A DNA stretch of 64,000 nucleotides from Escherichia phage Ecwhy_1, in sequence record MH791411.1; one strand, given 5' to 3'. Positions 42,914 through 57,745 of the stretch are shown here, one piece after another. Positions within the stretch are counted from its first letter, which is position 1. Each line of letters begins with the position of its first letter. The notes under the pieces were generated by a model. The model was not told the origin of the DNA. It saw nothing but the letters and a program-made list of their open reading frames with translations, and did not search any database. The translations under genes and the position numbers were made by a program.

Positions 42914-42980
42914 TTCGTTATCCTCATCAATTGATGAAATAATTATAGCAAAAAGGGCTGACCTAAGTCAACCCTTTTGT
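42914..42980 (-). promoter_or_regulatory. class-B cassette: terminator hairpin overlapping promoter
   Basis: GGGTTGAC-loop-GTCAGCCC hairpin + T-run; TTGACT (in stem) ~N18 TATAAT; GAGGA SD. Confidence 0.6.
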
Positions 42981-44324
42981 TTAGTTTTGTTTCACCCCAC
43001 CCCATTTTTCATAGATGGCAATAATTTTATCTATGTTGTTTGGTGTAGTTGTTTCTGTATACCCATCCCCCACCTCTCTTTTAGTGAAGATTGGACAAAA
43101 CTGCCTTTTACATTCATTTTCTGCGTTAGTACAATTTCCAACACTTGGAAAGCGATACGAATACATTGGTTTTATATCAAAAATACTATTCAAATTTTGT
43201 TTTGAAACTCGATTGCCCTTTACTGTTTCTTTTCCATATTTCACACCAACACATACCCCGCTGTCCATTATTACATGAATATATGTATATGTTGCACACT
43301 TTCCGGCATCATATGGGTTACCTTGATGTTTATCTAAAAAGTTCGTTATAGATGTTTTATATGGTAAATTATTACTACTCCCCATCAACATTATGTTAGT
43401 TTTCTGATTTGGTTTTTCTGGATTGTGTTCAAACCCTATAAATTTATCATTTGAATTACGAAATTCTAATTCCTTTTTTATACGATATACATACTGTGAT
43501 TTAGTCCAGTGGAAATTAGTTGAACACCTACACGGTATAATATGTGCAGATGATAAATCATTTAGTGTTGCGTAGAATACACCATCACATACACCAGCTT
43601 GTACATATTCATCATAACTACACTTCGCACACACAAATTTGTATAAACGATAATTTCCCCTCATCTTTTCTGATGGTTGAATTGTAAATTCATTAGTTAA
43701 ATGACCATTATTATTAATTTTATCTATATGATATTGTAGTGGTTTAGAGTTAGTTTTAGTTATTGACTCTTTTTTACATTTCATACAACCAAATGTTTTA
43801 TTTTTTGATGTTAACGTATTAATATTAGAAATCGAACAAAACACATTATGTTTGTTACAATAAATTAGTATCTCAGTGTTGGTAGCATTAATTTTATCAT
43901 AAGAACCAAGACCCAATAATGTATATATCCCACCACTGAATTTTTTGAATTGTTCAATAATAGTCATAATATGTTGTGTATTTGTTTTCTTTGTCCACTT
44001 TGTTGCAGATTTCTTTTTAGTAATATGTATGGAGTTTATTCCCAATCCATATATTAAACCATTCGGGACATCATATTTTTTAAGATAGTGTTTACTATTA
44101 TTGTAAATGAAATATCCCAAAATCGAGTTATCATTATTGGAAAAATCATCTTGGGGTAATTTATTAAAATCCATATGGTTGAAATCTTTTGTTGGATGGC
44201 GTTCTGATAAAATAATACGAGTTATTTTATCAGAATCGACCATTTTTGAACAAATTGTAATTCTAACATCTTGTATGAAATTCAATTTGGTACATTTAAA
44301 AGGTACTTTAATATCAACACGCAT
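42981..44324 (-). CDS. Cys-rich hypothetical protein (447 aa)
   Basis: ORF track; several CxxC/CxC pairs; no confident family assignment. Confidence 0.65.
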   Translation of the reverse strand: MRVDIKVPFKCTKLNFIQDVRITICSKMVDSDKITRIILSERHPTKDFNHMDFNKLPQDDFSNNDNSILGYFIYNNSKHYLKKYDVPNGLIYGLGINSIHITKKKSATKWTKKTNTQHIMTIIEQFKKFSGGIYTLLGLGSYDKINATNTEILIYCNKHNVFCSISNINTLTSKNKTFGCMKCKKESITKTNSKPLQYHIDKINNNGHLTNEFTIQPSEKMRGNYRLYKFVCAKCSYDEYVQAGVCDGVFYATLNDLSSAHIIPCRCSTNFHWTKSQYVYRIKKELEFRNSNDKFIGFEHNPEKPNQKTNIMLMGSSNNLPYKTSITNFLDKHQGNPYDAGKCATYTYIHVIMDSGVCVGVKYGKETVKGNRVSKQNLNSIFDIKPMYSYRFPSVGNCTNAENECKRQFCPIFTKREVGDGYTETTTPNNIDKIIAIYEKWGGVKQN

Positions 44325-44553
44325 TACTTAAAACTCCTTTCCAGTACTGAACCCGTCCAGCACCATTAATCTTAGCTTGAATCTTATCTTTTTCGACAAG
44401 ACCTTCTTTGTAATCGATGGAAGTATTATCGCACTGAATTACATCTAAGTCAAGTACTTCTTGTGTACTTAATGAAGTATTGTCTGCAATTTGTTGTAAT
44501 GTAATGATATCAGTACCGAAGAATTCTGCTAAACGTATAAAAGATAGTTTCAT
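44314..44553 (-). CDS. hypothetical protein (79 aa)
   Basis: ORF track; overlaps start of 447-aa gene. Confidence 0.55.
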   Translation of the reverse strand: MKLSFIRLAEFFGTDIITLQQIADNTSLSTQEVLDLDVIQCDNTSIDYKEGLVEKDKIQAKINGAGRVQYWKGVLSNAC

Positions 44554-44673
44554 GTATTGCCTCTTGAGATGATGAAATAATTATAGCAAAAAGGGCTGAC
44601 CTAAGTCAACCCTGTTTTAAAGTTTTTTTAATATGTTGATAACGACGGTATGTATTCACCATCTGTCATCATT
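44554..44673 (-). promoter_or_regulatory. class-B cassette
   Basis: same ~45 bp as 42925-42975. Confidence 0.6.
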
Positions 44674-45411
44674 TCACACGATATCCCCATATGGTTTAAT
44701 TGTTTTTAGACACCAAGGAATAGGAATCCCATATTCAGAACCCCATAAATCTGAATAAGAATTATAGAGTTCACCAAGTTCTTTCATCTGTTCATAGTTG
44801 TTCAACAACTGATATTGAAAGTCTAAGCCTTCATCCCCAACTGGTACAAACTTATTACCAAGTAGGTTATTTTTTACTTTACCTATATGTATGCCATGTG
44901 TCGCATCAGATATCGTCCCATCACTTTCTAACCAAAACGATCCATCATATGATCCACTACCTCTACGAATATAAATTCTTTCTCCATATGGAACAATAGC
45001 TGGAGTTGTCATATCATGCAATGCATTATTGTACTTATTATCTTTATCAAAAGTATTAATACTACCTTCAGAAAAAGATTTATTATTAGAAAGAATAAAG
45101 TATGCCATATCATTTATTAATTGTGATGGAACCCATCCATGCGAATCACCATCAGAACCTACGTTGTAATAAGTAATTTCGTTTCCTAATTTATCAACTG
45201 TAATATCAATATCATATACAGGAAATGACCCACTATAACGTTCATAACCATGAGCATCGAATGTTAAATATCCATTATTATCTAATATCATACTATAAGT
45301 ACTATTATTAATAACAATAGTAAGTTCTTTTTGTTTTCCACATTTTAAGGTAGTTCGCGAATAAGTTAATTCATAATATGTTTTGTATAAGTAATGTTCT
45401 TCTATCAACAT
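44674..45411 (-). CDS. hypothetical protein (245 aa)
   Basis: ORF track. Confidence 0.6.
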   Translation of the reverse strand: MLIEEHYLYKTYYELTYSRTTLKCGKQKELTIVINNSTYSMILDNNGYLTFDAHGYERYSGSFPVYDIDITVDKLGNEITYYNVGSDGDSHGWVPSQLINDMAYFILSNNKSFSEGSINTFDKDNKYNNALHDMTTPAIVPYGERIYIRRGSGSYDGSFWLESDGTISDATHGIHIGKVKNNLLGNKFVPVGDEGLDFQYQLLNNYEQMKELGELYNSYSDLWGSEYGIPIPWCLKTIKPYGDIV

Positions 45412-45609
45412 TTAAATATCCTTGTTGGATAATCATAACGTTAGTTCGTTAATGATTATTATATAAAGGATGATAACTAACTATTTTTCAAGTTAATATA
45501 TTCACCCCATAAATTATATATATTGTTTTCAACACAATCATCATCGCTTAATTCTATCATTGACGATATAAGTACTGAATAGTTCATTACACATCTGTCA
45601 CTACATCAA

Positions 45610-45804
45610 CTAATCCTCACTGAAAACAACAATAAGGAATGACACGAACAATGCCGCATAACAAGGAGCTATCTTCATGTACCACGGGACTTCATAATAC
45701 CATGTACCCAATTCATCCCACGAAAAGAGTATACTCACACCGAAGCCGATTAGCGATAGTACAATAAAAGAAATCCAGAAACGCTTTGAATATACTAATA
45801 ACAT
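45610..45804 (-). CDS. small membrane peptide (64 aa)
   Basis: two hydrophobic segments. Confidence 0.5.
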   Translation of the reverse strand: MLLVYSKRFWISFIVLSLIGFGVSILFSWDELGTWYYEVPWYMKIAPCYAALFVSFLIVVFSED

Positions 45805-45842
45805 GTTATGTTCCTTTGTGTGACCGAAGTTAACCCTTACCT

Positions 45843-46358
45843 TTAATAATTATTCATTTCATCTTTGATTTGTTCTTCAATTTCGTCGAACATATCAGTA
45901 CTAGATTCTATATTACTACTTACGTCCTGCATATCTTTAACGTACTGTGGGCGTTCAACGTCAGTAAATTTATACCACATAGGCTTCATATGGAGCTTCT
46001 CAATCAAACGCTCACGAGACATTTTAATCTCTGACTCCGATGGTACGTAGTCATTACAAAACTCAGCAGGGAAGCCGCTAATGTCGTTTACTTCAGTGTT
46101 TTGAATCTTCATCCCACGACGCAAACATTCGTTAACAATATCAATATGACGCTTCTGTAAGTACAATAACTTGTTGTAGAAGAATGTTACATGACCTGAA
46201 CCTAACAGGTAAGTACTGTTAATTTTGAAATCACGGACTCGCTTACGTGCTTGAACATGTTTTTGTACAGCACCAAACACACGTGGGAGTTCACGATATT
46301 CAGCCATCAGATGTTGGTCAGCAAGTTCTTTAACGTGTACTAAGTTAATGCGTGTCAT
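45843..46358 (-). CDS. denV: endonuclease V (pyrimidine-dimer DNA glycosylase), T4 DenV homolog
   Basis: [42 protein letters not shown] recalled T4 DenV signature; extra ~33-aa acidic C-terminus. Confidence 0.85.
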
Positions 46359-46430
46359 GTATTCATCCTCTCGTTTCGATGAAATGATTATAGCAAAAAG
46401 GGCTGACCGAAGTCAACCCGTTTTGAAAGG
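46359..46430 (-). promoter_or_regulatory. class-B cassette
   Basis: GGGTTGACTTCGGTCAGCCC hairpin + T-run + TATAAT. Confidence 0.6.
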
Positions 46431-46700
46431 ATTTTTTAATGGTTTTCGTACTGTATGTATTTTGCTTTGTAGTTCTTCTTCCCACAAAACATTTATATTA
46501 TAAACTAAATCATTGTAGTCACTGTTCACAAAGATAAAATCATACTTCTCATTAAAAGTATGAGAAATCAATTGCATTTTCATAAGTATTATTGAACTTT
46601 TAAATTTATATGTTTCTTTTTCTTCTCCAGTTTTTGAACTTTGTATATTTTTTATAAATTCCATGAATTCATCATTGGTCATTGTTTCAGCATCCAACAA
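46413..46700 (-). CDS. hypothetical protein (95 aa)
   Basis: ORF track; 3-prime end runs into cassette hairpin. Confidence 0.5.
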   Translation of the reverse strand: MLDAETMTNDEFMEFIKNIQSSKTGEEKETYKFKSSIILMKMQLISHTFNEKYDFIFVNSDYNDLVYNINVLWEEELQSKIHTVRKPLKNPFKTG

Positions 46701-46977
46701 TACCCAACTTCACAATCTCATACCCATCCAAATATCCATATGAACACTCAGGCGTTTCATAAGATGAACCATCATGGATGCCCTGGCATTGACTTTTGGA
46801 ATTCTCAAGCAATCGTTGCAGTACTGATACGTCATCAAGAACGTAATACAAGTTAGCATATAGGTCCGTTACAATACAGTACTCCAACATGTCAAATGTA
46901 TCAATCGAAATTTCAACCTTAGCAAATTGTTTCTTTTCTTTATTATACAGTGCGTACATATTAATCTCCATAATCAA
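46687..46977 (-). CDS. hypothetical protein (96 aa)
   Basis: ORF track. Confidence 0.5.
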   Translation of the reverse strand: MIMEINMYALYNKEKKQFAKVEISIDTFDMLEYCIVTDLYANLYYVLDDVSVLQRLLENSKSQCQGIHDGSSYETPECSYGYLDGYEIVKLGIVGC

Positions 46978-47332
46978 GTTTAACTAACTTACCACCCAGA
47001 TACCCAAAGTTTTCTGGCTTCGCATCTGAATAGAAGAAGTCAGTACTCAACTCTGAATCCAATGCTAAAGCACACAACTCCACCCAAAATAAACCCCTAT
47101 GTTGTACTGGCTTACAACGTTTCTGTACAGTTACTAGTCCAGTACATGATGACCACAACGTAGGGCAGATACCACTATCACTACGCTTGGAGTACTGCAT
47201 CCAAGAACGTTCATTGAGGTTAGCTATCATCCCTGTTAAGAATAGCTTCCAACTTTTAAAGGTTGGAATCTTGATAGCATATTCCCCAATGAGTATGACA
47301 GTTCGTGTTGCACCTTTCAAATCTATATTCAT
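46961..47332 (-). CDS. hypothetical protein with kinase-like catalytic motifs (123 aa)
   Basis: DAKPENFGY..KLVKLDYGD resembles kinase catalytic loop + DFG; too short for full kinase. Confidence 0.45.
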   Translation of the reverse strand: MNIDLKGATRTVILIGEYAIKIPTFKSWKLFLTGMIANLNERSWMQYSKRSDSGICPTLWSSCTGLVTVQKRCKPVQHRGLFWVELCALALDSELSTDFFYSDAKPENFGYLGGKLVKLDYGD

Positions 47333-47341
47333 ATTTTTTAA

Positions 47342-47593
47342 TTAGAAGAACACAAACCAAGTCCAGAATAAATTCCACACTACAAATAAAGACATAGTGG
47401 TTTTATGTACAATATCAGCAGTACTGGTCCATCCTCCACCGTGTCCTATTCCATTTATGAATAGAACTAAGAACAAGATACCATTTACTACAATAGTACA
47501 TAGTAAGTACACAAACACATTCCATGCAAGTTCAGGGGATACTAACGTAAATGGTAAAACAATTAGTAGTATTAGAACTAATAAAATTTTCAT
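47342..47593 (-). CDS. small membrane protein (83 aa)
   Basis: hydrophobic throughout. Confidence 0.55.
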   Translation of the reverse strand: MKILLVLILLIVLPFTLVSPELAWNVFVYLLCTIVVNGILFLVLFINGIGHGGGWTSTADIVHKTTMSLFVVWNLFWTWFVFF

Positions 47594-47809
47594 TTATCGC
47601 CTCACTTAATTAACGTGACAATTAGTACGAATCAGATTCCCAGTACTCGATTGCTTCTTTCAGCAATTCTTTAGCACGTTGTTTTGCAATGCGAGCGGGT
47701 AACAGATATGTGTACATTAACTGACGCTTCACTTCATTCAGTGAAAGCTGTTCATGGTACAGTGCATCCATCAGTCGATTACGAGTACGTAGTTTCATAT
47801 AAGTTATCC

Positions 47810-48364
47810 TTATTTCAAAGAATCATAGTAAGCAGTGTCAAAGATTGGAGTCATAATAACATAGTCAATACGGTCAATGTAAGTTGAACTCCACATTTCT
47901 GGTTTGTCATAAAATTGACGCTCGCGTTCATTCATACGAGTCAGTACTTCTTCCAATTTACTACGTGAAGCCATCAATGTATTACGCGATCCATAAGTGA
48001 AGTACTCAGTCCATTGATATTCATATTCAGTACTGATAGATTGAATAGTACCATCTTTGAAATGAGCTAAGGCATATCCTTTCTCTACAAAGTTATCAGG
48101 TGGAAGAACACTATCTGGATTAGTTTTCAATGCTTTGGTTAACTTTTCTTTAATTTCAGTTAACGTGCATACTGAACGAATGTTCTTCAGGTTTGATACT
48201 TGAAAATCACTGTACTTTCCAAAGAAAAATACACGCCAATCTTTAGGTTCATTATCAGATACGGTAATATTCGGATGATGGGCGAGTAAACGAAGAAGGC
48301 CAGCTTTGTGACCGTTAATGTAGATCTCATGGATGTGGTTAGCAGTTTTCTTAAAAGTAATCAT
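47810..48364 (-). CDS. hypothetical protein (184 aa)
   Basis: ORF track. Confidence 0.6.
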   Translation of the reverse strand: MITFKKTANHIHEIYINGHKAGLLRLLAHHPNITVSDNEPKDWRVFFFGKYSDFQVSNLKNIRSVCTLTEIKEKLTKALKTNPDSVLPPDNFVEKGYALAHFKDGTIQSISTEYEYQWTEYFTYGSRNTLMASRSKLEEVLTRMNERERQFYDKPEMWSSTYIDRIDYVIMTPIFDTAYYDSLK

Positions 48365-48440
48365 GACAATTCCTCGATTGTGGGGATGAGAAGTTCATCC
48401 CCTTGATAAACATTATACAGTACTGAATGAGTTTGTCAAC

Positions 48441-48821
48441 TCAAAATAAATTCATTTCATGTGCGTATTGTGGTTCAAGATGCGATAAGTTTTTGAAGCT
48501 TTCTTTCAACTCAGCATCATCTACATACACCGTGCCTGGTACATTCCCCATAGTGAAACCTACCCACACAGTCATGTCACCAGTCCCTAAGCGTGGCATT
48601 GATAGCGAACCATCAGGTGAAACATCAAACGCTACACTGAAGTCATCAGTAACAACGTCAGAACCATTTTCGAGAATAATACATCCACTATCTTTAAGCT
48701 TCTGAATGTGGATAGCAGCCTCTACAGCACGTTTGAAGTTATAGTAAGACTCTTTATCCTCAAACATTGATTGTTTAATCAGACGCTTGTTTAGCTCGGT
48801 TACTTTGTGCATTTGACGCAT
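48441..48821 (-). CDS. hypothetical protein (126 aa)
   Basis: ORF track. Confidence 0.55.
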   Translation of the reverse strand: MRQMHKVTELNKRLIKQSMFEDKESYYNFKRAVEAAIHIQKLKDSGCIILENGSDVVTDDFSVAFDVSPDGSLSMPRLGTGDMTVWVGFTMGNVPGTVYVDDAELKESFKNLSHLEPQYAHEMNLF

Positions 48822-49078
48822 TACTTATCCATCTCCCACAGTTGTAGAATTTCATAAGAGCCTGGTGGTGCAGGATTCCTGATCTCAGGGAATTGAGTAC
48901 TTTTAGGATTTCCACCAGCATTAAATTCGTCAAGTAATGATTCCAGTTCGCGACGATCCTGAACAACATAAACACAATCACCTGAACCTTCTTCGAGAAT
49001 CATTTCACTTCCTGCACAATCCCATACTATTGAGATACATAGAATCTCTTTTGTATTTTTATTACGCAATGCAAACAT
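48821..49078 (-). CDS. hypothetical protein (85 aa)
   Basis: ORF track. Confidence 0.55.
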   Translation of the reverse strand: MFALRNKNTKEILCISIVWDCAGSEMILEEGSGDCVYVVQDRRELESLLDEFNAGGNPKSTQFPEIRNPAPPGSYEILQLWEMDK

Positions 49079-49087
49079 AGCAATCCC

Positions 49088-49456
49088 CTATCGATTTGGC
49101 ATTTTATCTCGTAATTTCACAAGATAATCAATCACGGTACATCCTGAAATAAAGGTAATATAAGTACTGAAAAATCCTACCAGAATAAAGGCAACAAGCG
49201 TACTCCCATTTGGTTCTTCAGCTTTAATACCAATGATACCATCAGATGCAGTGAAAAATGTAGACATAAACGTTAGACAGATGTACATCACTAATAAGAA
49301 TTCATGTTCTAATGACGGATAAAAACGGTCAAAGAGTTTATAAAATTTAAAGTACAGTAGGAGTATACCAACAAAGGCATAGAAAGTAAACAGTGTTGTT
49401 ATGATATATGATATTAAATTTAAATTATACATCTCAACGCTCCGGTAGATTATCAC
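49088..49456 (-). CDS. small membrane protein family member (122 aa)
   Basis: same family as 39636-42075; C-term LRDKMPNR. Confidence 0.65.
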   Translation of the reverse strand: MIIYRSVEMYNLNLISYIITTLFTFYAFVGILLLYFKFYKLFDRFYPSLEHEFLLVMYICLTFMSTFFTASDGIIGIKAEEPNGSTLVAFILVGFFSTYITFISGCTVIDYLVKLRDKMPNR

Positions 49457-49781
49457 GTAATGTTTTGATTCGATTATACAATTTCATTGCTACATTTCCA
49501 AATAAACCAAAACCCATTACTAAAATGTATGCGATGAACATAGTAATAATCACAATAGTACCTAGACTGTAATGTACTGCACTAATACCCATTATTGTTT
49601 CTACAATGATGTGAGCAACAGAAATAATCAAAAGTACTACTACAATTGGATGATTTGGATACATTCGGTTAAACAATGTTTTGTACTTAAAGAAGTACAG
49701 TACTCCACCAAATAAGAAGTACACAATGTAGATTGATGCAATAGCATAAGCAAAAGCATTAGTGTAGAAAATCATTATCAA
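49434..49781 (-). CDS. small membrane protein family member (115 aa)
   Basis: C-term LRDNLPER. Confidence 0.65.
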   Translation of the reverse strand: MIMIFYTNAFAYAIASIYIVYFLFGGVLYFFKYKTLFNRMYPNHPIVVVLLIISVAHIIVETIMGISAVHYSLGTIVIITMFIAYILVMGFGLFGNVAMKLYNRIKTLRDNLPER

Positions 49782-49784
49782 TCC

Positions 49785-50123
49785 TTACTTTTCAGGGATT
49801 TTATCACGCCACTCATCAATACGATGAAGCAGTTTAAAGAGCAAAAATATCGGAACAGTAGCTATCATAATGGCAATTGTTAGTAATGTCAACCCCGATA
49901 CGAGATTTAATTCGTCAGTACTATATCCACATACCAGTGCTTCAATTATCCCCCACGTACATGCACAGAACATCATAAATGAAATGGGTGCATCGTAGTA
50001 TATGCGTTGATACAAGGTTGTGTATCGGAAGAATGCAATAATGTAACAAAACATGTAATACACCCAAATTAACGATACTACATAAAATGATACCTTATTA
50101 ATTAATTCAAAATGTTGTTCCAT
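49785..50123 (-). CDS. small membrane protein family member (112 aa)
   Basis: C-term WRDKIPEK. Confidence 0.65.
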   Translation of the reverse strand: MEQHFELINKVSFYVVSLIWVYYMFCYIIAFFRYTTLYQRIYYDAPISFMMFCACTWGIIEALVCGYSTDELNLVSGLTLLTIAIMIATVPIFLLFKLLHRIDEWRDKIPEK

Positions 50124-50133
50124 TTTTTTACCC

Positions 50134-50436
50134 CTACATATATTCTAAGAATAATGTATTAGCTTCGTCTATGTTCTTAAGATAATACATGTAATACAGA
50201 TTTGGTTGTCCGTCTTTTGAACTCAAATCAAAGTACTTTAAACTATGCACCTTCATGACAAAAACAAATAATGACTTAAAACCAATCTCACCGTACTTAA
50301 TAAACAGTTCATCTAAATGAATGTAACTCTTAGTTTCAGATAATTCCTTCACATCAGCTTCAATTTCTTGTAAGCGAAGTTTACCGATTAAGTTTTCAAA
50401 TGAACGCATGATGTTGTTCCTTATGCTGGTACACAA
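50134..50436 (-). CDS. hypothetical protein (100 aa)
   Basis: ORF track. Confidence 0.55.
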   Translation of the reverse strand: MCTSIRNNIMRSFENLIGKLRLQEIEADVKELSETKSYIHLDELFIKYGEIGFKSLFVFVMKVHSLKYFDLSSKDGQPNLYYMYYLKNIDEANTLFLEYM

Positions 50437-50834
50437 TTTTTTATAATGAATACACGTTTCATGAATGAACTTTCATATACGTACTTCAGTTTACCATTTT
50501 CACGCATACGATGAAACACATCTTTACCACTAGTACTCCATGTTGAACCAGTCTCTGCATCAACATTGTTCATTACACCAGATGTTACGTTCACCCCGTA
50601 CTTGAAGCTAAAGGTACTGCCTTCTTCTACTAGAGGGATTGGTGTACTACGTTCATGTTCCAGTACAAGTTTACTGCCGATGATGTTGTACGAAGTTAGC
50701 TTGCATTTTAAAACACCCATCTCTTGTGCAGTTGGGTAATTCTTCTCAAATAAATCAGATACTTCATTTGCATAACAAACTGAACTAATCATAAGAAGTA
50801 ATGAACTGATAGAACGGAAAATAACTTTTAACAT
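50421..50834 (-). CDS. secreted hypothetical protein (137 aa)
   Basis: signal-peptide-like N-terminus. Confidence 0.6.
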   Translation of the reverse strand: MLKVIFRSISSLLLMISSVCYANEVSDLFEKNYPTAQEMGVLKCKLTSYNIIGSKLVLEHERSTPIPLVEEGSTFSFKYGVNVTSGVMNNVDAETGSTWSTSGKDVFHRMRENGKLKYVYESSFMKRVFIIKNCVPA

Positions 50835-50900
50835 GTTTGCCTCCAGTAGTTGATGAAATGATTATAGCAAAAAGGGCCGACCGAAGTCAACCCTTTTCTT
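50835..50900 (-). promoter_or_regulatory. class-B cassette
   Basis: GGGTTGACTTCGGTCGGCCC hairpin + T-run + TATAAT. Confidence 0.6.
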
Positions 50901-51251
50901 TTATATTTTACATGTCATGTCTGGTTTTGGCTTTTCATTCTTTGGCTTTTCAAATGGATTTGGCTTAGGGGACTTTTTATCTTTGTCATCTTTAGCTTTC
51001 TTTTTGTTTTCTTTTTTATCCGATTTGTCAGCTTTGTCTTTCTTATCTTTTGAATCTTTGTCAGCTTTAGATTGTGGTTCCTCACATACAGCAGTTTTTG
51101 GCTCCGGCATATCACATGAGTTATCCACAGGTTTAATGAACTCTTTACAGTTGTAGAAGTATAAACTTTCATTGGTAGTAAGATTGTGGAATCTAAAAGT
51201 ATTTTCACCATTAGTATATACTTTCTTAGTACTCTCAATATCATTACACAT
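50901..51251 (-). CDS. Lys/Asp-rich Cys-containing protein; possibly C-terminal part of a frameshifted secreted protein
   Basis: track ORF starts at GTG; first ATG at 51251; no own signal peptide; upstream ORF with signal peptide ends 13 nt away in another frame. Confidence 0.4.
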   Translation of the reverse strand: MCNDIESTKKVYTNGENTFRFHNLTTNESLYFYNCKEFIKPVDNSCDMPEPKTAVCEEPQSKADKDSKDKKDKADKSDKKENKKKAKDDKDKKSPKPNPFEKPKNEKPKPDMTCKI

Positions 51252-51261
51252 TGCAACCGTG

Positions 51262-51513
51262 TCACCGGAATTCACGCTCGATACCTAGTATATCCGACTT
51301 ACGTTCAGATAGTATTCCAGACGTATATCGATCTTTGTTATCAAATGCATTGAACCCTATAGTTTTATAATTGTCATGTACCAATCCTCTAGTGTAAGAC
51401 TTGGTATAGAACTCACCGTTTCTAAACTCCTGTCTAGCAATGGAGCACTGGTATTCAGTACTATAAACTATATCAGTAAACAATACAAGTGAAAATAAAA
51501 CATATTTAAACAT
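51262..51513 (-). CDS. secreted hypothetical protein (83 aa)
   Basis: signal peptide MFKYVLFSLVLFTDIVYS. Confidence 0.55.
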   Translation of the reverse strand: MFKYVLFSLVLFTDIVYSTEYQCSIARQEFRNGEFYTKSYTRGLVHDNYKTIGFNAFDNKDRYTSGILSERKSDILGIEREFR

Positions 51514-51584
51514 TGCATTACCTCTTATAAAACCCTCTACAATATTTACAAAAAAAGGTTGACCGAAGTCAACCTTTTAAATGT
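51514..51584 (-). promoter_or_regulatory. class-B cassette
   Basis: perfect GGTTGAC-TTCG-GTCAACC hairpin + T7. Confidence 0.6.
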
Positions 51585-53096
51585 TTATTTTTTATCCTTT
51601 CCAACACCACGGTCGTACTCTTTGAATGAGTTATCAAGTGTAGTTAGTGCATACTCATATGCTTCTGGTGATTCAATGTCAACATCATCTGCACCATTTA
51701 CTAAATCAGCCCAAGCCTTTTGAAGTTTACGAGCATTGTTACCAACATTATCTTTAATCCAACTAATGTTTTTGTTGATACTTTTACTATCAGCACCTGC
51801 TTTTTTACCAATCTCGGATATCCACATCATTAGCTTTTGAAGTTCATGAATTGATTTATCGGTCATTTCAAGATGTTCTTCTTCCATACCTTCGGAATCA
51901 GATGAACCAACGTCAATTCCATGTTTAGCTAATAGTTTACCAAGTTCAAAGAATGCAGCTTCAGCAGGGAAGTCATAACCTTTGTCTTTATAGTTATTCC
52001 ATGCACTATCAAACTCGTCAACAAAACGGTTAGCATAATCTGGATTTTTAACTAATGCTTTATATACTGCCATTGCATGTTCAAAACCTTCTTTATCTGA
52101 CCCAAACTCTTCCATCTCAGGACGATGAATGTATCCATCCATATCAACGGTATCAGGTAGATCTTCTTGCTCAGGCTCAACATCTTTCTGTTCAACTGCA
52201 CCTTCTTCATCTTTACGTAGTAGATATCCATCAGGTGTCACTTTCTCACCATGTTCTGCTTCATACTTTTTCATAGTGTTGAATGCAGCATCCATAGCTG
52301 TTACGAAGCGACTTTTCTCACCTTGTACATAAGATTTAAGTGCACTGTTAACTGCATCTGATACGAGCTTAACCTTATCATCTTTACCTTCTAAACGGTT
52401 TTCAAGTTTAGCCAGTACATTCTTGACTTGCTGGGCATTAGCACGTTCTGCTTTACCAATACTATCAAAAATTTTAAGAATACCATCAAGACTTGCTTCA
52501 CCCTGTTCAGGTTCTTTGGAATCTTCTTTGTGTGTACCTTCAAGTGCACGCATGATAGTACTGAATACTTCAGTAGGTTCAGTGCTCTTATTACCTTTCA
52601 TTGCATCAAGTACAGCTTGTGCTTTACCTTTGAGTTCTTCTTTAGGAACTGCCTGTAGTGCTTTGACAATACCCTGAATCAACTGTGGTTTGTTAGCAAA
52701 GATCTTACCTAAGTTATCAGATAACTCTTTAACAGGGTTAGCAGCTTTAGGAGCTTCTGGTTTTGGTTCTTCTTTAGGAACTGCTTGTTCTTTCTCAGCA
52801 CGTTCCATATCAGCAAGGCGTTGTTTCTGTGTTGCGTTAAGAAGACCTAATGAGTTAACATAACGTAGCTTTTCTAGCTCAGTCATGTTCTCAGTACTCT
52901 TAACTTCACCTGCTTCTGCGTTTGCCTTACCAGCTAAACCTGTCCCTTGATTACGTGAACCACGTGACCCCTGTCCTGCTTGGTAGCTATTTTGACGACG
53001 ATTGCGTTCACTCCATTTATCAGAGTGACCTGCCATGTTCCCGCCATTTTTATCAGTAAATTGACCTGGCATTTGATTTCTCTCCATAGATTTCAT
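51585..53096 (-). CDS. hypothetical 503-aa protein, candidate late/virion protein
   Basis: TATAAATA ~27 nt upstream; shares N-terminal domain with 53944-54327. Confidence 0.7.
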   Translation of the reverse strand: MKSMERNQMPGQFTDKNGGNMAGHSDKWSERNRRQNSYQAGQGSRGSRNQGTGLAGKANAEAGEVKSTENMTELEKLRYVNSLGLLNATQKQRLADMERAEKEQAVPKEEPKPEAPKAANPVKELSDNLGKIFANKPQLIQGIVKALQAVPKEELKGKAQAVLDAMKGNKSTEPTEVFSTIMRALEGTHKEDSKEPEQGEASLDGILKIFDSIGKAERANAQQVKNVLAKLENRLEGKDDKVKLVSDAVNSALKSYVQGEKSRFVTAMDAAFNTMKKYEAEHGEKVTPDGYLLRKDEEGAVEQKDVEPEQEDLPDTVDMDGYIHRPEMEEFGSDKEGFEHAMAVYKALVKNPDYANRFVDEFDSAWNNYKDKGYDFPAEAAFFELGKLLAKHGIDVGSSDSEGMEEEHLEMTDKSIHELQKLMMWISEIGKKAGADSKSINKNISWIKDNVGNNARKLQKAWADLVNGADDVDIESPEAYEYALTTLDNSFKEYDRGVGKDKK

Positions 53097-53177
53097 ATTG
53101 TTTATTCTCTATGACTATATTTATAGTATAAAGAAAAGGTTGACCGAAGTCAACCCTATTTTCACTGTACTATACCA
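53097..53177 (-). promoter_or_regulatory. class-B hairpin + late-type promoter
   Basis: GGGTTGACTTCGGTCAACC hairpin then TATAAATA on minus strand. Confidence 0.6.
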
Positions 53178-53474
53178 TTAGTAGTTACAGTCAGCTTTCG
53201 CTGTGAATGTTTTACTTTCACCTCGTTGTGTGGTGATTCGTCCGAGTAAAGTAGTTTTGTCAATAGTCATTGTAGTTAGTACTGGAACATTACCTTCAAA
53301 GTCAATAGCTTTGAAATTGTAGGTGGTTTCATTCTCCACTACACTTGGACCAAAGAGTTCATATGTGTTGATTTCAAGTGTGTCACCATCTGAACGCAAC
53401 AGTGTGCAGTCCAGATTAGGAGTAGCCAGTACTGGGAAAGCCAAAAACATCATCATTACAATAATTAATTTCAT
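53178..53474 (-). CDS. secreted hypothetical protein (98 aa)
   Basis: signal peptide MKLIIVMMMFLAFPVLATP. Confidence 0.6.
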   Translation of the reverse strand: MKLIIVMMMFLAFPVLATPNLDCTLLRSDGDTLEINTYELFGPSVVENETTYNFKAIDFEGNVPVLTTMTIDKTTLLGRITTQRGESKTFTAKADCNY

Positions 53475-53734
53475 TTCACTTCTCCTGTTTTTTTCTTAGG
53501 ATCAACCAATGACCAAATGAAGAATCCGAGAATTACAAGTACCCACAGAATCATGATAAAGAAAGCGAACAGTACAATAGTGTTTGTCAAAAAGAAATAC
53601 AATAGAATGTTCGACCCAATACTACATACAATCAATGCAGCTTCATGTTTAACAACACGAATGGCTGTAATGAGTGCAGGAAGAAATCCGACAAATAACA
53701 GTACTAACGCATATAGTGATAATGTTTCAGCCAT
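53471..53734 (-). CDS. small membrane protein (87 aa)
   Basis: two hydrophobic segments. Confidence 0.6.
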   Translation of the reverse strand: MAETLSLYALVLLFVGFLPALITAIRVVKHEAALIVCSIGSNILLYFFLTNTIVLFAFFIMILWVLVILGFFIWSLVDPKKKTGEVK

Positions 53735-53860
53735 GATATCCCTTATTTGGTTTGTTCAAAACTAGGTGTATTGATATAGGTGTCAATTGAATAACATACT
53801 GTACCCACTACAACAGCAGCGATTAGGGCAGCGATGATGAATTTAGTACCTTGCATAATT

Positions 53861-53943
53861 TAATACCTCACGTTGTTTGTATTTTGTATCACTTGATGAA
53901 AATATTATACGACAAAGGGCTGACTGAAGTCAACCCCTTTTAA
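53861..53943 (-). promoter_or_regulatory. class-B cassette
   Basis: GGGGTTGACTTCAGTCAGCCC hairpin + TATAAT. Confidence 0.6.
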
Positions 53944-54327
53944 TTATTTTTTAAACTTATGTTTTTCGCCTTCAATAGAGTTCACGATGTCATCATGAAT
54001 CTTGCGAAGGTTATGAGTTTTCTTTAGTGCTTCATGTAGTGCACGGAATGCTGCGTGTACTGTTGCCTTGAAGTGCTCTTTAGGAGTCACTTTAAGTTTC
54101 TCAATGATATCACGTACATAAATTGGATGATCTTCAAATACACGATTCAATTCATGGCCTAGTGATTCTAAACTGAAAGCTTTTTCGCGTGAAGGACGAT
54201 CATGTGCAAGACTTTGGTCAGGCTTTAGTAGACCTAGTGAATCAAGATACTTATGCTTATGTGCATTATCAATTCCAGAAATATCCACATCATGCGATGG
54301 ATCTTTCTTATTCCATTTATCAACCAT
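53944..54327 (-). CDS. hypothetical 127-aa protein, paralog of N-terminal part of 503-aa protein
   Basis: KYLDSLGLLKPDQS vs RYVNSLGLLNATQK; TATAAATA + AAGGAG upstream. Confidence 0.65.
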   Translation of the reverse strand: MVDKWNKKDPSHDVDISGIDNAHKHKYLDSLGLLKPDQSLAHDRPSREKAFSLESLGHELNRVFEDHPIYVRDIIEKLKVTPKEHFKATVHAAFRALHEALKKTHNLRKIHDDIVNSIEGEKHKFKK

Positions 54328-54375
54328 TTCATACTCCTTAAAGAGATAAATTACTTTAATATTTATACTTCATGT
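54328..54375 (-). promoter_or_regulatory. late-type promoter candidate
   Basis: TATAAATA ~30 nt upstream of ATG on minus strand. Confidence 0.5.
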
Positions 54376-54438
54376 GCTGTTTATTTCAACAGACACTTAA
54401 GATTATATCACATATGAAATGGTTGTTCCAAAGTCAAA

Positions 54439-54882
54439 TCAGTACTGTTTAAGTTCTGAACTGAAGATAAAGGAATCCATATCTTCTAGTGTTAACTTCA
54501 AGTTCGGTGTGTACTTTAATATCACACATTCAGGTTTCTTAATGGCAGCTTGATAGGCAGCAATTGCCAACTGTTGAAGCTGCTCTGGTGTGTAGTTCAT
54601 GCGTTCTGCATTGAATACGATGTTCTTAATATCACCACCTGGCAGCTTCTCAAACTCACGCATAACAGCAGCCATCACATCATCAGATGTATTCTTATAA
54701 GCCCAATGAGGTAGTTGCATAACGTCATAAATCTCGCCATTGTCGTTCATAAGAGAGATCCATTTTTTACCGTCCGATGAACTAAACAGACGACCTTTAA
54801 TAGCAATGTTCTCTACCAAATTAACAAAGGCAAATATGTCTTGCTCATTTAGTTCAATGCTATTAACGTTAATCCAACCCAT
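54439..54882 (-). CDS. hypothetical protein (147 aa)
   Basis: trimmed to MGWINVN after GGAG SD. Confidence 0.55.
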   Translation of the reverse strand: MGWINVNSIELNEQDIFAFVNLVENIAIKGRLFSSSDGKKWISLMNDNGEIYDVMQLPHWAYKNTSDDVMAAVMREFEKLPGGDIKNIVFNAERMNYTPEQLQQLAIAAYQAAIKKPECVILKYTPNLKLTLEDMDSFIFSSELKQY

Positions 54883-54895
54883 ACTACATCTCCAG

Positions 54896-55468
54896 TTATA
54901 AATCACGAACGACATTCATTAAACACAATTTGGGCTTTATCGCATTCAAAACCCATATGCATTCTTTGTAAGTTGCTATTATAGCATCTAAATGCTCAGT
55001 TACAATGCTTTCTTGAAAATATTCTTCTTCATTGAGCTTTGCTAAATTAGTCACATCACATGTAGGTACTATAGGTCTGGATTGTACACCCATTCCATTA
55101 TTGATATTGGTAAAATGTAAAAAATTGTACTTCACCACACCGTTATCTACACTTATGATACATGTCAAATGTTCCAACTCAGTTAGTTCGGTATTACAAG
55201 TGACATGAATGAATCCAGCATTATAGGCTCTATAATCATCTACTAATATCTCAAAATCATTACGTTTAAATATAAGTGAAATGAGTTTGTCTTGTGGTTT
55301 AACCTTCTGAAATTTTACCGAATTTACGTATGATACTTTAATCTTAGATGAAATTATCTTTTTACTAAGTGCAGTTAATTCTTCTTTAGCCTTAAAAGTT
55401 AAAGTTATAGGTCTAAATCTAGAACTTTTGTTCTTCTTTGATACTTTGAACTTACCTTTTCTATTCAT
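54896..55468 (-). CDS. hypothetical protein (190 aa)
   Basis: ORF track. Confidence 0.6.
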   Translation of the reverse strand: MNRKGKFKVSKKNKSSRFRPITLTFKAKEELTALSKKIISSKIKVSYVNSVKFQKVKPQDKLISLIFKRNDFEILVDDYRAYNAGFIHVTCNTELTELEHLTCIISVDNGVVKYNFLHFTNINNGMGVQSRPIVPTCDVTNLAKLNEEEYFQESIVTEHLDAIIATYKECIWVLNAIKPKLCLMNVVRDL

Positions 55469-55522
55469 TAATTAAACCCCACATAAAGTAAAAGGGTTGG
55501 AATAATACCAACCCTATATCTT

Positions 55523-55759
55523 TTATTTTTTAATAGATTCATAAAGCAGAAACAACCAAATAAACATTGATGAACAAACTACTACTGGGATTAATGTAAA
55601 TTCAGTAAAGAATAAAAGTATTCCATAAGTTAGTATGCAACATAAGTTTACGTACATAATTGCTTCTGCATTTTTATTTTTCATTTTATATGCAATGAAT
55701 GTTGGTGACCACATTACCAAAAATGCAAACAACGCACATATGATGATTATAGTTTCCAT
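55523..55759 (-). CDS. small membrane protein (78 aa)
   Basis: hydrophobic segments. Confidence 0.55.
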   Translation of the reverse strand: METIIIICALFAFLVMWSPTFIAYKMKNKNAEAIMYVNLCCILTYGILLFFTEFTLIPVVVCSSMFIWLFLLYESIKK

Positions 55760-55829
55760 ATTACACCTCCGTAAAATAATGTTCTGTACTGCTATTATTT
55801 ACAGAGAATATCTGAAAAATTGATCTAGA

Positions 55830-56054
55830 TCAATTTTTAGTCACTTTACAATTTGAATCTTTTTTGTACTGAACAATCACATTGTTCTTAAGGAAGATGA
55901 TGGTCCCATAGGAACCTTGGGCTGCAACTTCAACAATATGGTTCTTATATGTTTCAGTATATCCTTCCATCTCGTTGATACACACTACATGATACTTTGG
56001 TTTAGCACATACAACAGTACTCAAGAATAGCAGTACTAGTACTAGATATTTCAT
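55830..56054 (-). CDS. secreted hypothetical protein (74 aa)
   Basis: signal peptide MKYLVLVLLFLSTVVCA. Confidence 0.6.
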   Translation of the reverse strand: MKYLVLVLLFLSTVVCAKPKYHVVCINEMEGYTETYKNHIVEVAAQGSYGTIIFLKNNVIVQYKKDSNCKVTKN

Positions 56055-56104
56055 TTTATTACCTTATAAACAAGAACAGGAATCCTTTTACGGATTCCTA
56101 TAAT

Positions 56105-56398
56105 TTAGTCCTTTAATGTACCATTGTGTAAACGATTATACACATCATTGCGACGCAACTCAACAATATCTTCAGCGTACTTCATTGTAAACGCCCATGC
56201 TTTTGGATGCACATTAAGCTTCATACGAATGCGATTCTTCATCAATTCACCGCTTAGGCGAACAAACTCATGAACACCACGACTTCCGTACTCTGAAATC
56301 AAATCATTGATGTACATGTTGCGAAGGGTTTCGTCTGTACATTCTTTAACCATTTCTACGTCTGCCACGATGCTTGCATTTACTGAAGTACTGATCAT
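56105..56398 (-). CDS. hypothetical protein (97 aa)
   Basis: ORF track. Confidence 0.55.
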   Translation of the reverse strand: MISTSVNASIVADVEMVKECTDETLRNMYINDLISEYGSRGVHEFVRLSGELMKNRIRMKLNVHPKAWAFTMKYAEDIVELRRNDVYNRLHNGTLKD

Positions 56399-56409
56399 TT
56401 TAAGTTACC

Positions 56410-56676
56410 TTATTTGAATTGGACTGTAATTTTATCACCTTCAACTACGAACTTACAGTCGTAGCGACGGGCCATATCCATATACATATGCTCAGAATAC
56501 CACGGAACATCAATAACTGGATGCTCTGCGTATTGTAGCACTTCACGGTCACCAACAGTAGTGATGACGAAAGGAATGTTCATCTCTCGCAAAAACAACT
56601 CGGCACCTGGTGAACGATTGACAAACTCAGTGTCGTTACGCAAAGTAAAACCATTGTATTGTAATTTAAGCTTCAT
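56410..56676 (-). CDS. hypothetical protein (88 aa)
   Basis: ORF track. Confidence 0.55.
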   Translation of the reverse strand: MKLKLQYNGFTLRNDTEFVNRSPGAELFLREMNIPFVITTVGDREVLQYAEHPVIDVPWYSEHMYMDMARRYDCKFVVEGDKITVQFK

Positions 56677-56690
56677 GATTATCCTCTAAG

Positions 56691-57047
56691 TTAATACCAT
56701 TCTTTTAAACCATCAAGTTCGGCTATGTGAGTAATTATAACACAGATAACACTCAGGTCAAGCATTATTTGCTCATAATTTAATTTTATTCTATCATCAC
56801 TGTATGCTCTAAAAACAACATCAAAGTCAAAGTAGTTATCGTTTTCATCATTCATTGGAATGATTCTATATCTACGTCTACCATCATCATTGAATACAGT
56901 CAAACATTGTTTGAATTTCTTCATTAACTGTGTAGTCAATGCATTGTAATATGCAACATCATATTGTGTACAACGTGGGTCATTGGGTAGATAAAACGAT
57001 ACAAATTTTTTTAATTCTATTTGAGTCTTATCCATATACAGCCTCAT
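56691..57047 (-). CDS. hypothetical protein (118 aa)
   Basis: ORF track. Confidence 0.55.
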   Translation of the reverse strand: MRLYMDKTQIELKKFVSFYLPNDPRCTQYDVAYYNALTTQLMKKFKQCLTVFNDDGRRRYRIIPMNDENDNYFDFDVVFRAYSDDRIKLNYEQIMLDLSVICVIITHIAELDGLKEWY

Positions 57048-57468
57048 GTATTACTCTTTTACTTTGGCGGTACTCATCCTTTGCTTCTCTCACTGACATG
57101 ATACGAACCAGATTGGCACTACCACAATAGTACTGAACCTGACTACGACCAATGTCAACATGATTATCAGGAACTTCATATACTGATACAGCAAACCCTG
57201 CACGATGTAATTTACCCAAGTCCATAGTAAAGAACTTAAACAAATCATTCAAACTCTGACAGCCAAATGCCCAGCCACGTTTGATTGAATAGATTCCATC
57301 TTCAGTTGGTTCTGGTTGGAATTGCGAAGGCGTGGTCATGCACAAACGGTCAAATCCATTTTTAGTACTGTATCGTGAAGAGTACCGTGCGAACGGCCCT
57401 ACTGTTTTTGCTGGATCTAAGTTAGGTTCAATATAACTGAATTTAAGTTCAAAACGATATACGTACAT
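57028..57468 (-). CDS. hypothetical protein (146 aa)
   Basis: ORF track. Confidence 0.6.
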   Translation of the reverse strand: MYVYRFELKFSYIEPNLDPAKTVGPFARYSSRYSTKNGFDRLCMTTPSQFQPEPTEDGIYSIKRGWAFGCQSLNDLFKFFTMDLGKLHRAGFAVSVYEVPDNHVDIGRSQVQYYCGSANLVRIMSVREAKDEYRQSKRVIHEAVYG

Positions 57469-57523
57469 AATTAAAATCCCCAGTAGTTGATGAAATAATT
57501 ATAACAAAAAAGGTTGACCGAAG
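57469..57523 (-). promoter_or_regulatory. class-B cassette
   Basis: GGTTGACTTCGGTCAACC hairpin + T7 + TATAAT. Confidence 0.6.
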
Positions 57524-57745
57524 TCAACCTTTATTTTGAAGTTCTTGAACTAATTGTCGTACTTCTTTGATGTTATGACACTGCTTTACAGTGAAGTAAT
57601 CATACTTACGACCATAGGTTCTTGGATCATCACCTTCCATATACTGCTGCACATCAAAGATTTGTAAGTAGGGATGCTGCATAACACGAATGTTACCACA
57701 TTGATAAATCAACATATGTTTAGTCCTCATATTTACACAAGCCAC
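57524..57745 (-). CDS. hypothetical protein (73 aa)
   Basis: ORF track. Confidence 0.5.
   Translation of the reverse strand: MACVNMRTKHMLIYQCGNIRVMQHPYLQIFDVQQYMEGDDPRTYGRKYDYFTVKQCHNIKEVRQLVQELQNKG

Follow-up and report, generated by a model that had tools for sequence, protein, structure and literature searches.

Candidate terminator-promoter cassettes of the PeSL type between the genes of an Asteriusvirus jumbo coliphage

The DNA considered here is a stretch of 64,000 nucleotides (nt) from Escherichia phage Ecwhy_1 (MH791411.1), referred to as the window. Between 42 and 58 kb it carries, at eight intergenic sites, a short repeated cassette that consists of a hairpin with TTGACT in its 5' arm, a T-run and, in most copies, TATAAT further downstream; the cassette is a candidate for an element that ends one transcription unit and starts the next. 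Over 76-81% of its length, the region from 42 to 58 kb shares 98-99% identity with the Escherichia phages fEgEco12, EC.P1, CMSTMSU and vB_Ec-M-J, and it is 85-88% identical to 121Q, PBECO4, phAPEC6 and G17. The latter four belong to Asteriusvirus, Rak2-like jumbo myoviruses of ~350-385 kb, and the source of the window is a member of this genus, a 121Q/PBECO4-like, Rak2-like jumbo coliphage. According to GC skew and open reading frames (ORFs), the minus strand is the coding strand of 40-64 kb as well as of 1-20 kb. The eight copies are clustered in 15 kb where ORFs are mostly shorter than 150 aa and devoid of Pfam hits, and the genes behind the cassettes are mostly such small ORFs without a Pfam match; those that can be identified encode a P-loop NTPase, endonuclease V (DenV), an endonuclease and two virion structural proteins. 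An Rfam scan of the whole window returned no family, and a tRNA scan found none.

When GGTTGACTTCGGTCAACC was searched for with up to three mismatches, ten hits were obtained, all on the minus strand, compared to 0.02 expected from shuffled sequences. Eight of them are the sites listed in the first-pass annotation; these intergenic hairpins are real, lie on the minus strand and exceed chance by far, and the positions given there are the first bases of the gaps that host them. The hairpin cores are located at 42956-73, 44594-611, 46401-18, 50875-92, 51557-74, 53138-55, 53918-35 and 57512-29. All of the host gaps measure 55-120 nt and end in GAGG or GGAG and ATG, and each cassette has the orientation of the coding strand and lies at a distance of 20-40 nt from the Shine-Dalgarno sequence and ATG. 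The order of elements is constant: an A-tract (columns 4-11 of the alignment of copies described below are A-rich in nearly all of them), a G+C-rich stem of 7-9 bp (GGTTGAC / GTCARCC) with TTGACT in the 5' arm, a 4-nt loop and a T-run. On the minus strand the consensus reads aaaaGGGTTGAC-TTCG-GTCAGCCC-TTTTTGCTATAATnATTTCATCAAC, and GAGG and ATG follow 10-25 nt later. Two details of the earlier description apply to part of the sites: a UUCG-type loop had been claimed throughout, and TTCG occurs at five sites, with TTAG at two and TTCA at one; the proposed distance of ~18 nt between TTGACT and TATAAT is observed at six of the eight, with TAAATA at 51557 and TATACT, at 17 nt, at 53138.

The individual cassettes, all on the minus strand, are numbered by increasing coordinate. 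Cassette 1 (42935..42980; -17.8 kcal/mol, z -5.7) comprises A-tract, hairpin and T-run at 42951-42978 with a TTAG loop, a -35 element TTGACT at 42966-42971 and the extended motif TGcTATAAT, its -10 at 42942-42947; the putative target is the P-loop NTPase gene 42143..42913. Cassette 2 (44573..44619; -16.0 kcal/mol, z -3.8) likewise has a TTAG loop in its hairpin (44587-44619), the -35 at 44604-44609 and TATAAT at 44580-44585, ahead of a 79-aa ORF (44314..44553) as putative target. Cassette 3 (46380..46425; -16.8 kcal/mol, z -4.6; hairpin 46394-46425, loop TTCG; -35 46411-46416, -10 46387-46392) would serve the endonuclease V gene denV (45843..46358), and cassette 4 (50854..50898; -18.0 kcal/mol, z -5.0; hairpin 50869-50898; -35 50885-50890, -10 50861-50866), the 3' arm of which reads GTCGGCC and forms two U.G wobbles, a 137-aa ORF (50421..50834). 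The hairpin of cassette 5 (51536..51578; -15.6 kcal/mol, z -5.4) is perfect (51553-51578) and followed by a run of seven T's; TTGACT is present at 51567-51572 and only TAAATA, at 51543-51548, in the -10 position. In front of the 83-aa ORF behind it (51262..51513), cassette 5 is thus a predicted terminator with a weak or different promoter. Cassette 6 (53111..53157; -14.4 kcal/mol, z -3.8; hairpin 53136-53157) has TTGACT at 53148-53153 and TATACT at 53125-53130, 17 nt apart, the latter overlapping TATAAATA at 53118-53125; its putative target is the virion structural protein gene 51585..53096. Cassette 7 (53897..53939; -16.0 kcal/mol, z -4.7; hairpin 53914-53939, loop TTCA) has a short T-run, CCCTTTGT, with the -35 at 53928-53933 and TATAAT at 53904-53909, and would serve the small ORFs 53747..53860, 53471..53734 and 53178..53474. 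Cassette 8 (57491..57538; -14.1 kcal/mol, z -5.2) combines a perfect hairpin (57505-57538), a -35 at 57522-57527 and TGtTATAAT with its -10 at 57498-57503; the putative target is a 146-aa ORF (57028..57468). Two further terminator-like hairpins on the minus strand, 55493-55515 (AGGGTTGGTATTATTCCAACCCT-TTTT) and 56076-56101 (ATAGGAATCCGTAAAAGGATTCCTGT), are devoid of TTGAC and of a -10; they are probably plain terminators within the unit begun by cassette 8, and a synteny break with respect to 121Q and G17 adjoins the former.

A decayed half-cassette is found on the minus strand at 45818..45842, directly after the stop codon of endonuclease V: AAGGGTTAACTTCGGT, the half-copy proper (45818-35), passes into unrelated sequence without a -10 and does not fold (-2.2 kcal/mol, z +0.3). 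In three cases an upstream ORF, a different one each time, terminates on the TGA within the -35 TTGAC of the next cassette (57524-57526, 46420-46422, and ~3552-3554 in the fEgEco12 locus); in the window these are the ORF 57524..57745 upstream of cassette 8 and an 87-aa ORF upstream of cassette 3. A single TGA triplet may thus be stop codon, promoter element and part of a terminator stem at the same time.

Predicted free energies of the eight hairpins lie between -14 and -18 kcal/mol, and their z-scores relative to dinucleotide shuffles between -3.8 and -5.7. They have the features of an intrinsic terminator, a G+C-rich stem of 5 bp or more, a loop of 3-8 nt and at least 4-5 U's in the 8 nt behind the stem, with a weak tail at 53918. 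A consensus terminator scan of the minus strand lists four of the sites (44613, 46419, 53157 and 57532); the other four are missed because A-U pairs make the T-run part of the stem. In most copies the palindrome is imperfect, and the 5' arm GGTTGAC faces GTCAGCC or GTCGGCC. Because such a 3' arm allows U.G pairs in the sense RNA and gives C.A in the antisense RNA or a cruciform, the sense-strand hairpin is, in eight of 11 copies, 5-10 kcal/mol more stable than its antisense counterpart. For a broader view, 68 copies (51 of them distinct) were aligned from the window, five Asteriusvirus relatives, RaK2, Munch, KVP40 and the KVP40-like phage D482; CMSTMSU was excluded, as its record is marked unverified and the T-runs of its cassettes are one base shorter than those of the other relatives. 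In the distinct copies, 97.7% of the cells are paired; TTGAC and its partners G, T and C are invariant, and an exchange of A and G is the sole change opposite its two T's. A caveat that weakens these figures is that copies were gathered by requiring TTGAC and at least six pairs, which makes the inner-stem values circular in part; this does not affect the outer pairs, the loop or the one-sided exchange of A and G. Three outer pairs change with compensation, one of them being G-C in 32, A-U in 11 and G-U in seven aligned copies. The loop varies freely (TTCG, TTAG, TAAG, TTCA, TTTG, ACTA, TTAT, ATAA, TCCG and the GNRA loops GAAA and GAGA). A covariation test of the inner stem that was anchored on the outer stem was dominated by loci fetched with the stem pattern and was not used. 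A double constraint, with a -35 element in the 5' arm and pairing in the 3' arm, predicts just such a stem, in which one arm is fixed and the other only has to be complementary. Hairpin and T-run thus appear to be selected at the level of the RNA, on the sense strand.

As regards the promoter half, the six sites with TTGACT-18-TATAAT match the sigma-70 consensus at 11 of 12 positions, and five of them have TG in front of the -10; the combination TTGACT-17-TATACT at 53138 matches at ten of 12. Among the 11 sites that match sigma-70 best over 19 kb, six belong to the cassettes, and promoter-like matches overall are not enriched in these 19 kb (74 vs 89 expected). A-tract, TTGACT, 18-nt spacer, TGnTATAAT and the start region CATCAA are in register across genera, and two subtypes of the -10 can be distinguished, TATAAT with a spacer of 18 nt and TATTAT with one of 17 nt, the second in RaK2, Munch and the copies from the first 18 kb of the window. 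A middle-promoter reading of TTTTTGCTATAAT as a MotA box was rejected: TGC abuts the -10, as in an extended -10, and is not located at -30.

The cassette is widespread among large phages. A 48-nt cassette query matched 561 places in 162 phage records, which comprise Rak2-like phages of all genera (Asteriusvirus, RaK2, GAP32, CBB, BF, Munch, 7t3, fHe-Yen9-04 and Erwinia jumbo phages) and, in addition, KVP40-like vibriophages, Aeromonas 65-like phages and ~149-kb CR3/CB7-like phages. RaK2 has eleven copies within 21 kb. In IMG/VR, a strict pattern scan returned at least 120 loci, mainly on contigs of 345-424 kb and ~245 kb, with five to six copies per 7-9 kb among the matches listed. Since no match was obtained in 5,426 E. 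coli genomes, the cassette does not derive from the host. It has been noticed in part by annotators: the GenBank records of G17 (by ARNOLD) and Munch have terminator features on these hairpins, and the match in UE-S1 also lies on a terminator feature. For CBB, 18 RpoD-like promoters and 74 terminators (ARNOLD) have been predicted, and the distant relative PA5oct has TTGAC/TATAATA promoters supported by RNA-seq. The literature searched on promoters and terminators of Asteriusvirus, RaK2, 121Q and phAPEC6 yielded generic, separate predictions only, and the composite element is not described in it.

The first-pass annotation had set the cassette apart from a family in the first 18 kb and concluded that modular control elements differ between the two halves of the window. 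This partition does not strictly hold, as the first 18 kb also contain three TTGAC-in-stem copies, on the minus strand like the others, and the other type also occurs at 48365..48440. The copy at 8859..8894 (hairpin and A/T-tracts 8867-8894; -16.9 kcal/mol) reads AAAAGTGGTTGAC-TCCG-GTCAGCCATTTT and has TATTAT after 17 nt; it precedes a conserved non-coding segment rather than an ORF. In the copy at 4849..4884 (hairpin and A/T-tracts 4857-4884), AAAGGGATTGAC-TCCG-GTCAGTCCCTTT with TATTAT again after 17 nt, the stem has a compensated change from G-C to A-U, and the copy at 1579..1614 (1587-1614) is identical to it in hairpin and -10. The element at 48365..48440 (minus strand) has TTGACA-N16-TATAAT, the palindromic octamer CAGTACTG in its spacer and then, in the 5' untranslated region (5'UTR), a hairpin GGGGATGA..TCATCCCC without a T-run; the general pattern of the 5'UTR hairpin in this type, after TTGACA-N16-TATAAT, is GGGGA...TCCCC. 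Since each type has copies in the other half, the two are interspersed and not divided by half. The claim that they are distinct holds for CAGTACTG, the position of the hairpin and the -35 and spacer: the first-18-kb promoters have TTGACA, a spacer of 16-17 nt with CAGTACTG in it, and a hairpin GGGGAGAA..TTCTCCCC without T-run located after the start site. It does not extend to the -10 and the CATCAA start, which both types have in common, and the two arrangements may be regarded as two variants of one promoter class.

The octamer itself occurs 67 times in 1-64000 on both strands, compared to 0.83 expected, with 51 copies in 1-32 kb (examples are found at 1002, 5571, 14024, 18772 and 48418). 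It is placed in the spacer just before the -10 of the first-18-kb promoters (...CAGTACTGTATAAT), in hairpin stems on the plus strand and in coding regions, is absent from every TTGAC-in-stem cassette, and could be bound by a phage regulator or DNA-binding protein. Between 600 and 17000 on the minus strand, ~25 near-consensus sigma-70 promoters (TTGACA/TTGCA-N16-17-TATAAT) are arranged with one per small ORF, and behind many of them come a 5'UTR hairpin GGGGAGAA-loop-TTCTCCCC that lacks a T-run and then a Shine-Dalgarno sequence; this is probably an immediate-early region and the other cassette family of the first-pass annotation. A conserved non-coding unit of ~45 nt around CCCAYAGGGTGC / CCCACCGGGTGC was observed in eight copies, compared to 0.09 expected (minus strand: 1515-1582, 4790-4857, 7125-7192, 8795-8862 and 16102-16169; plus strand: 13638-13705, 16041-16108 and 18196-18263). 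Each copy lies just downstream of a promoter start region, three of them behind the first-18-kb TTGAC-in-stem cassettes. RNAalifold yielded a weak hairpin of seven pairs without covariation for this unit, and no Rfam match was found; it may be a small RNA or leader family.

Many differences in gene content between the window and its relatives begin or end at the cassettes. In pairwise comparisons with six relatives, homology ends at 42982/3 in four phages and at 42978 in another, at 44613 in three, at 45821 in two, at 46423/4 in five, at 53135 in one and at 53162 in three, in each case no more than 10 nt from a hairpin. A further boundary, 53893 (three phages), is found at that end of cassette 7 which holds the promoter, 25 nt away from its hairpin. 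In fEgEco12 and EC.P1, the stop codon of endonuclease V is followed by one complete cassette and then by the NTPase gene. In the window, 121Q and G17, the same stop codon is followed only by AAGGGTTGACTTCGGT, fused to unrelated sequence; behind it comes a stretch of 2.8 kb that encloses four ORFs and one cassette, and then a complete cassette (42956) and the NTPase gene. One cassette in the former two phages versus a half and a full one here places the crossover in the loop or 3' arm of a hairpin; crossover inside a hairpin was likewise reported for the mini-circles of RB49 (PMC2839356). Position 46424, the upstream edge of cassette 3, exists in three states: nothing is inserted in 121Q and G17, an HNH endonuclease gene in fEgEco12, EC.P1 and others, and the unrelated 87-aa ORF in the window. 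The HNH gene is free-standing and abuts the cassette (3552-3965 in the fEgEco12 and EC.P1 loci; the counterpart region in the window is 46424-46679), and both inserted genes end on the TGA within TTGAC. The derived TTAG loop is common to the neighbouring copies 42956 and 44594 and missing in their orthologues, which suggests conversion between copies. The cassette-free block at 46.7-50.4 kb forms a single unbroken alignment in every relative that retains it. Of 21 distinct breakpoints, six are found 12 nt or less from a hairpin, compared to 0.47 expected under a uniform null (p ~1e-5); it counts against a specific role that the same six of 21 yield p = 0.17 when breakpoints are restricted to intergenic positions, so that participation in recombination is suggested and the hairpins are not established as hotspots. 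Beyond the intergenic location of the cassettes, it is a few junctions that suggest such a role.

Cassette 6 deviates from the others in its promoter. The T4 late-promoter consensus TATAAATA follows TTGACT by 22 nt at site 53138, and the gene behind it encodes a virion structural protein (phrog_20398). TATAAATA is depleted in the window (three copies vs 13.7 expected, standard deviation 4.2), and all three copies are located just upstream of genes: apart from that in cassette 6, minus-strand 54360-54367 precedes a second virion protein gene (53944..54327), and plus-strand 24309-24316 the first of twelve tandem genes resembling RCC1. These positions are consistent with the use of a T4-type late promoter in this phage; for the Rak2-like phages CBB and GAP32, ATAAATA has been proposed as late promoter (PMC5259590). 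The D482 copy of the cassette also has TATAAATA after it, and from the two cases the hairpin module appears to combine with different -10 modules. The features of a T4-type late promoter, TATAAATA at about -10 with no need for a -35 and ahead of a virion gene, are found, among the eight sites, at 53138 only, which differs from such promoters in being joined to a PeSL-type hairpin; it would be the 'late' counterpart of the PmSL described for nt-1. The twelve tandem paralogues (24344-39599, plus strand; 358-414 aa) match 'regulator of chromosome condensation' (RCC1-like) PHROGs. Between some of them lie hairpins GCCAGTACT-loop-AGTACTGGC that have a T-run and precede TATAGTATAATGAATAAAGGAGG, a third type of hairpin-plus-promoter-like unit.

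The cassettes are probably PeSLs (promoter-early stem-loops), elements defined in the phages RB49 and phi1 (PMC2839356): an intrinsic terminator would overlap a sigma-70-type promoter, the -35 of which resides in the 5' arm of the stem, and the repeated unit would have a secondary role as a patch of homology. The cassettes may operate in the following manner: Incoming minus-strand transcription would copy the A-tract, the G+C-rich stem with its stable UUCG-type tetraloop and the U-run, and the intrinsic terminator would release RNA polymerase within the spacer of the next promoter. The same DNA would then act as a sigma-70-type promoter, presumably recognized early in infection by the host sigma-70 holoenzyme, with the A-tract as an UP-like element besides its function as partner of the U-run, TTGACT of the 5' arm as -35 and TGnTATAAT 18 nt downstream as extended -10; transcripts would start in CATCAA ~7 nt after the -10 and lead into the Shine-Dalgarno sequence and ATG, which lie 20-30 nt further on. 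Stop and restart in one cassette would insulate short transcription units of one to about a dozen small genes each, and repetition of a ~50-bp unit would allow it to serve as homology patch for gain, loss and swap of gene modules. At 53138, the hairpin module would be used with another type of promoter, the TATAAATA late promoter ahead of the virion gene. The dual role was already proposed in the first-pass annotation, and the conservation of the sense RNA, the invariant TTGAC next to a variable loop and 3' arm, the extended -10 at a fixed 18 nt and the match to PeSLs with activity in RB49 speak in its favor; it does not apply in this form to the two of eight sites that lack TATAAT, one of which has the late-type promoter.

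Several observations weigh against this interpretation. The T-run at 53918 is weak (TTTGT), the orthologous RaK2 copy ahead of denV has a T.T mismatch in its stem, and the 18-nt spacer is one above the optimum. The two sites without a good -10 (51557 and 53138) still keep TTGACT, so that part of the conservation of TTGAC could reflect shared descent or gene conversion instead of -35 function. In the literature searched, transcript-end or start-site data were found for no Asteriusvirus. Finally, Rak2-like phages encode an RpoD-like, sigma-70-family factor of their own (CBB_513; CPT_Munch_487), and host sigma-70 is therefore not the sole candidate reader.

If that phage-encoded factor were the reader, rather than host sigma-70 right after infection, the cassettes would constitute a delayed-early or middle class apart from the CAGTACTG-containing promoters. 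The systematic difference between the types would fit, with CAGTACTG confined to the spacer of the other type and spacers of 16-17 vs 18 nt, as would the inclusion of denV and the NTPase gene, and not only tiny ORFans, among the genes served. The 11 of 12 matches to the E. coli sigma-70 consensus along with the extended -10, the -10 and CATCAA start common to both cassette types, and the occurrence of the same cassette in KVP40-like phages nevertheless make a phage-encoded reader unlikely; moreover, tblastn with the Munch sigma factor found no phage sigma factor gene in the window, so that nothing here links one to the cassette sites.

A more far-reaching possibility is that the cassette goes beyond convergence on one regulatory design and is an integron-like docking module, shared by unrelated large myoviruses, through which genes pass from one of them to another. 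It is prompted by a 28-nt core, including a peculiar U.G wobble, that is identical in E. coli jumbo and Vibrio T4-like phages, by different inserted genes that end on the TGA of TTGAC and by crossovers inside the hairpin. In addition, release of the polymerase in the next spacer could pass it straight on to that promoter and couple termination to re-initiation. Both ideas are to be considered rather doubtful extensions of the PeSL-type interpretation.

It is also improbable that the cassettes are terminators and nothing else, TTGAC and TATAAT having been carried along by duplication or gene conversion of an ancestral intergenic unit and downstream genes being expressed by read-through or from other promoters. 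The annotators of G17 and Munch did mark terminators alone, two sites retain TTGACT without a consensus -10, and the similarity over ~50 nt makes the recent common descent of the copies obvious. However, TTGAC is invariant across Asteriusvirus, Alcyoneusvirus, Munch and KVP40-like phages, while loop, outer stem and 3' arm vary; an unconstrained stem would drift with compensation. Furthermore, the -10 keeps a fixed distance of 17-18 nt, with the extended TG in most copies and in two subtypes, an efficient terminator without a promoter would silence each downstream unit, and the PeSLs of RB49 are strong promoters (PMC2839356).

That the inverted repeat acts primarily in the DNA, as a cruciform or protein site for recombination, homing-endonuclease targeting or another transaction with the transcription signals being secondary, is very improbable in spite of the indel junctions at the hairpins (one inside a hairpin), the HNH gene directly against one cassette in several relatives and the site-specific recombination left open for PeSLs by Arbiol et al. 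(PMC2839356), since the imperfect palindromes (GGTTGAC/GTCAGCC) pair fully only as sense RNA and the C.A on the other strand disfavours a cruciform or symmetric site, the loops are dominated by UUCG and GNRA, stable tetraloops specific to RNA, every copy has the orientation of the genes and a T-run behind it, and the enrichment of breakpoints is non-significant within intergenic positions.

The concept of the PeSL was described in T4-like phages in 2010 and 2014, this very sequence family is almost certainly among the elements described there, and the hairpins of relatives were already annotated as terminators; no concept is changed by the cassettes, which provide a clear, though ordinary, example from a group of viruses new to this element. 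What is new is (i) their documentation in Rak2-like jumbo phages, (ii) the explicit placement of the -35 in the stem, with the one-sided constraint, (iii) the reuse of the TGA of TTGAC as stop codon and (iv) the late-promoter variant. The idea of one short repeat that would end one unit, start the next and serve as recombination patch is thereby extended from T4-type to Rak2-like jumbo phages, and a single solution, a -35 in a terminator stem with a UUCG loop and a U.G wobble that specifies the strand, appears to be conserved across several families of large myoviruses. For annotators of 350-kb genomes, the cassette provides a simple rule to delimit transcription units and to predict promoters that are missing from current records; for synthetic biology, it may offer a compact natural terminator-promoter insulator.

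Among known systems, intrinsic (Rho-independent) terminators with UUCG or GNRA tetraloops resemble the cassettes in the G+C-rich stem, the stable 4-nt loop, the U-run and the A-tract that pairs with it; ordinary terminators have no sequence constraint on one arm, in contrast to the fixed TTGAC and the -10 at a fixed distance. The morons of lambdoid phages (PMC1524935) are likewise self-contained transcription units placed between genes, but they differ from the phage in G+C content and have unrelated signals, whereas the cassettes are one repeated, phage-specific unit. The closest counterpart is the PeSL of nt-1 and KVP40, the consensus of which is a stem-loop A3-4G3-loop-C3T3-4 with a promoter TTGYVH-N17-TAWWAT (Comeau, Arbiol & Krisch 2014, PMC4122927). 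The order of stem-loop, -35, N17, -10, Shine-Dalgarno sequence and ATG is the same, the elements are located in intergenic, small-ORF-rich regions, and half ('degraded') copies lie beside indels, comparable to 45818 in the window. The KVP40 copies AAAGGGTTGACAGATGTCAGCCCTTT..TATTCT, AAAAGGGTTGCACTGTGCAGCCCTTTT..TATCAT and AAAGGGTTGACTACGGTCAGCCCTTT..TATTAT fit this consensus, and 28 contiguous nt, AAAGGGTTGACTTCGGTCAGCCCTTTTT, are common to a cassette of the window and the KVP40 and D482 copies. The position of the KVP40 -35 inside the stem is a reading of these sequences proposed here, which the accessible text of that publication does not state. The window differs in that its source is an E. 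coli-infecting Asteriusvirus jumbo phage outside Straboviridae, and in a -10 (TGnTATAAT) that comes nearer to the consensus, most copies having a spacer of 18 nt. PeSLs have been reported from T4-type phages, and Rak2-like phages are only distant relatives of T4, the closest relatives of the window belonging to Asteriusvirus and not to Straboviridae; this limits the described host range of the PeSL family and is not a property of the element. In RB49 and phi1, where PeSLs were defined, lacZ fusions revealed strong promoter and terminator activity and inverse PCR revealed mini-circles, which form by recombination between flanking copies (Arbiol et al. 2010, PMC2839356). The cassettes of the window share with these elements the near-consensus sigma-70 promoter, the AT-rich upstream region and the terminator stem-loop; they differ in a stem that contains the -35 and in being known from sequence, whereas activities and mini-circles are experimental findings in RB49 and phi1.

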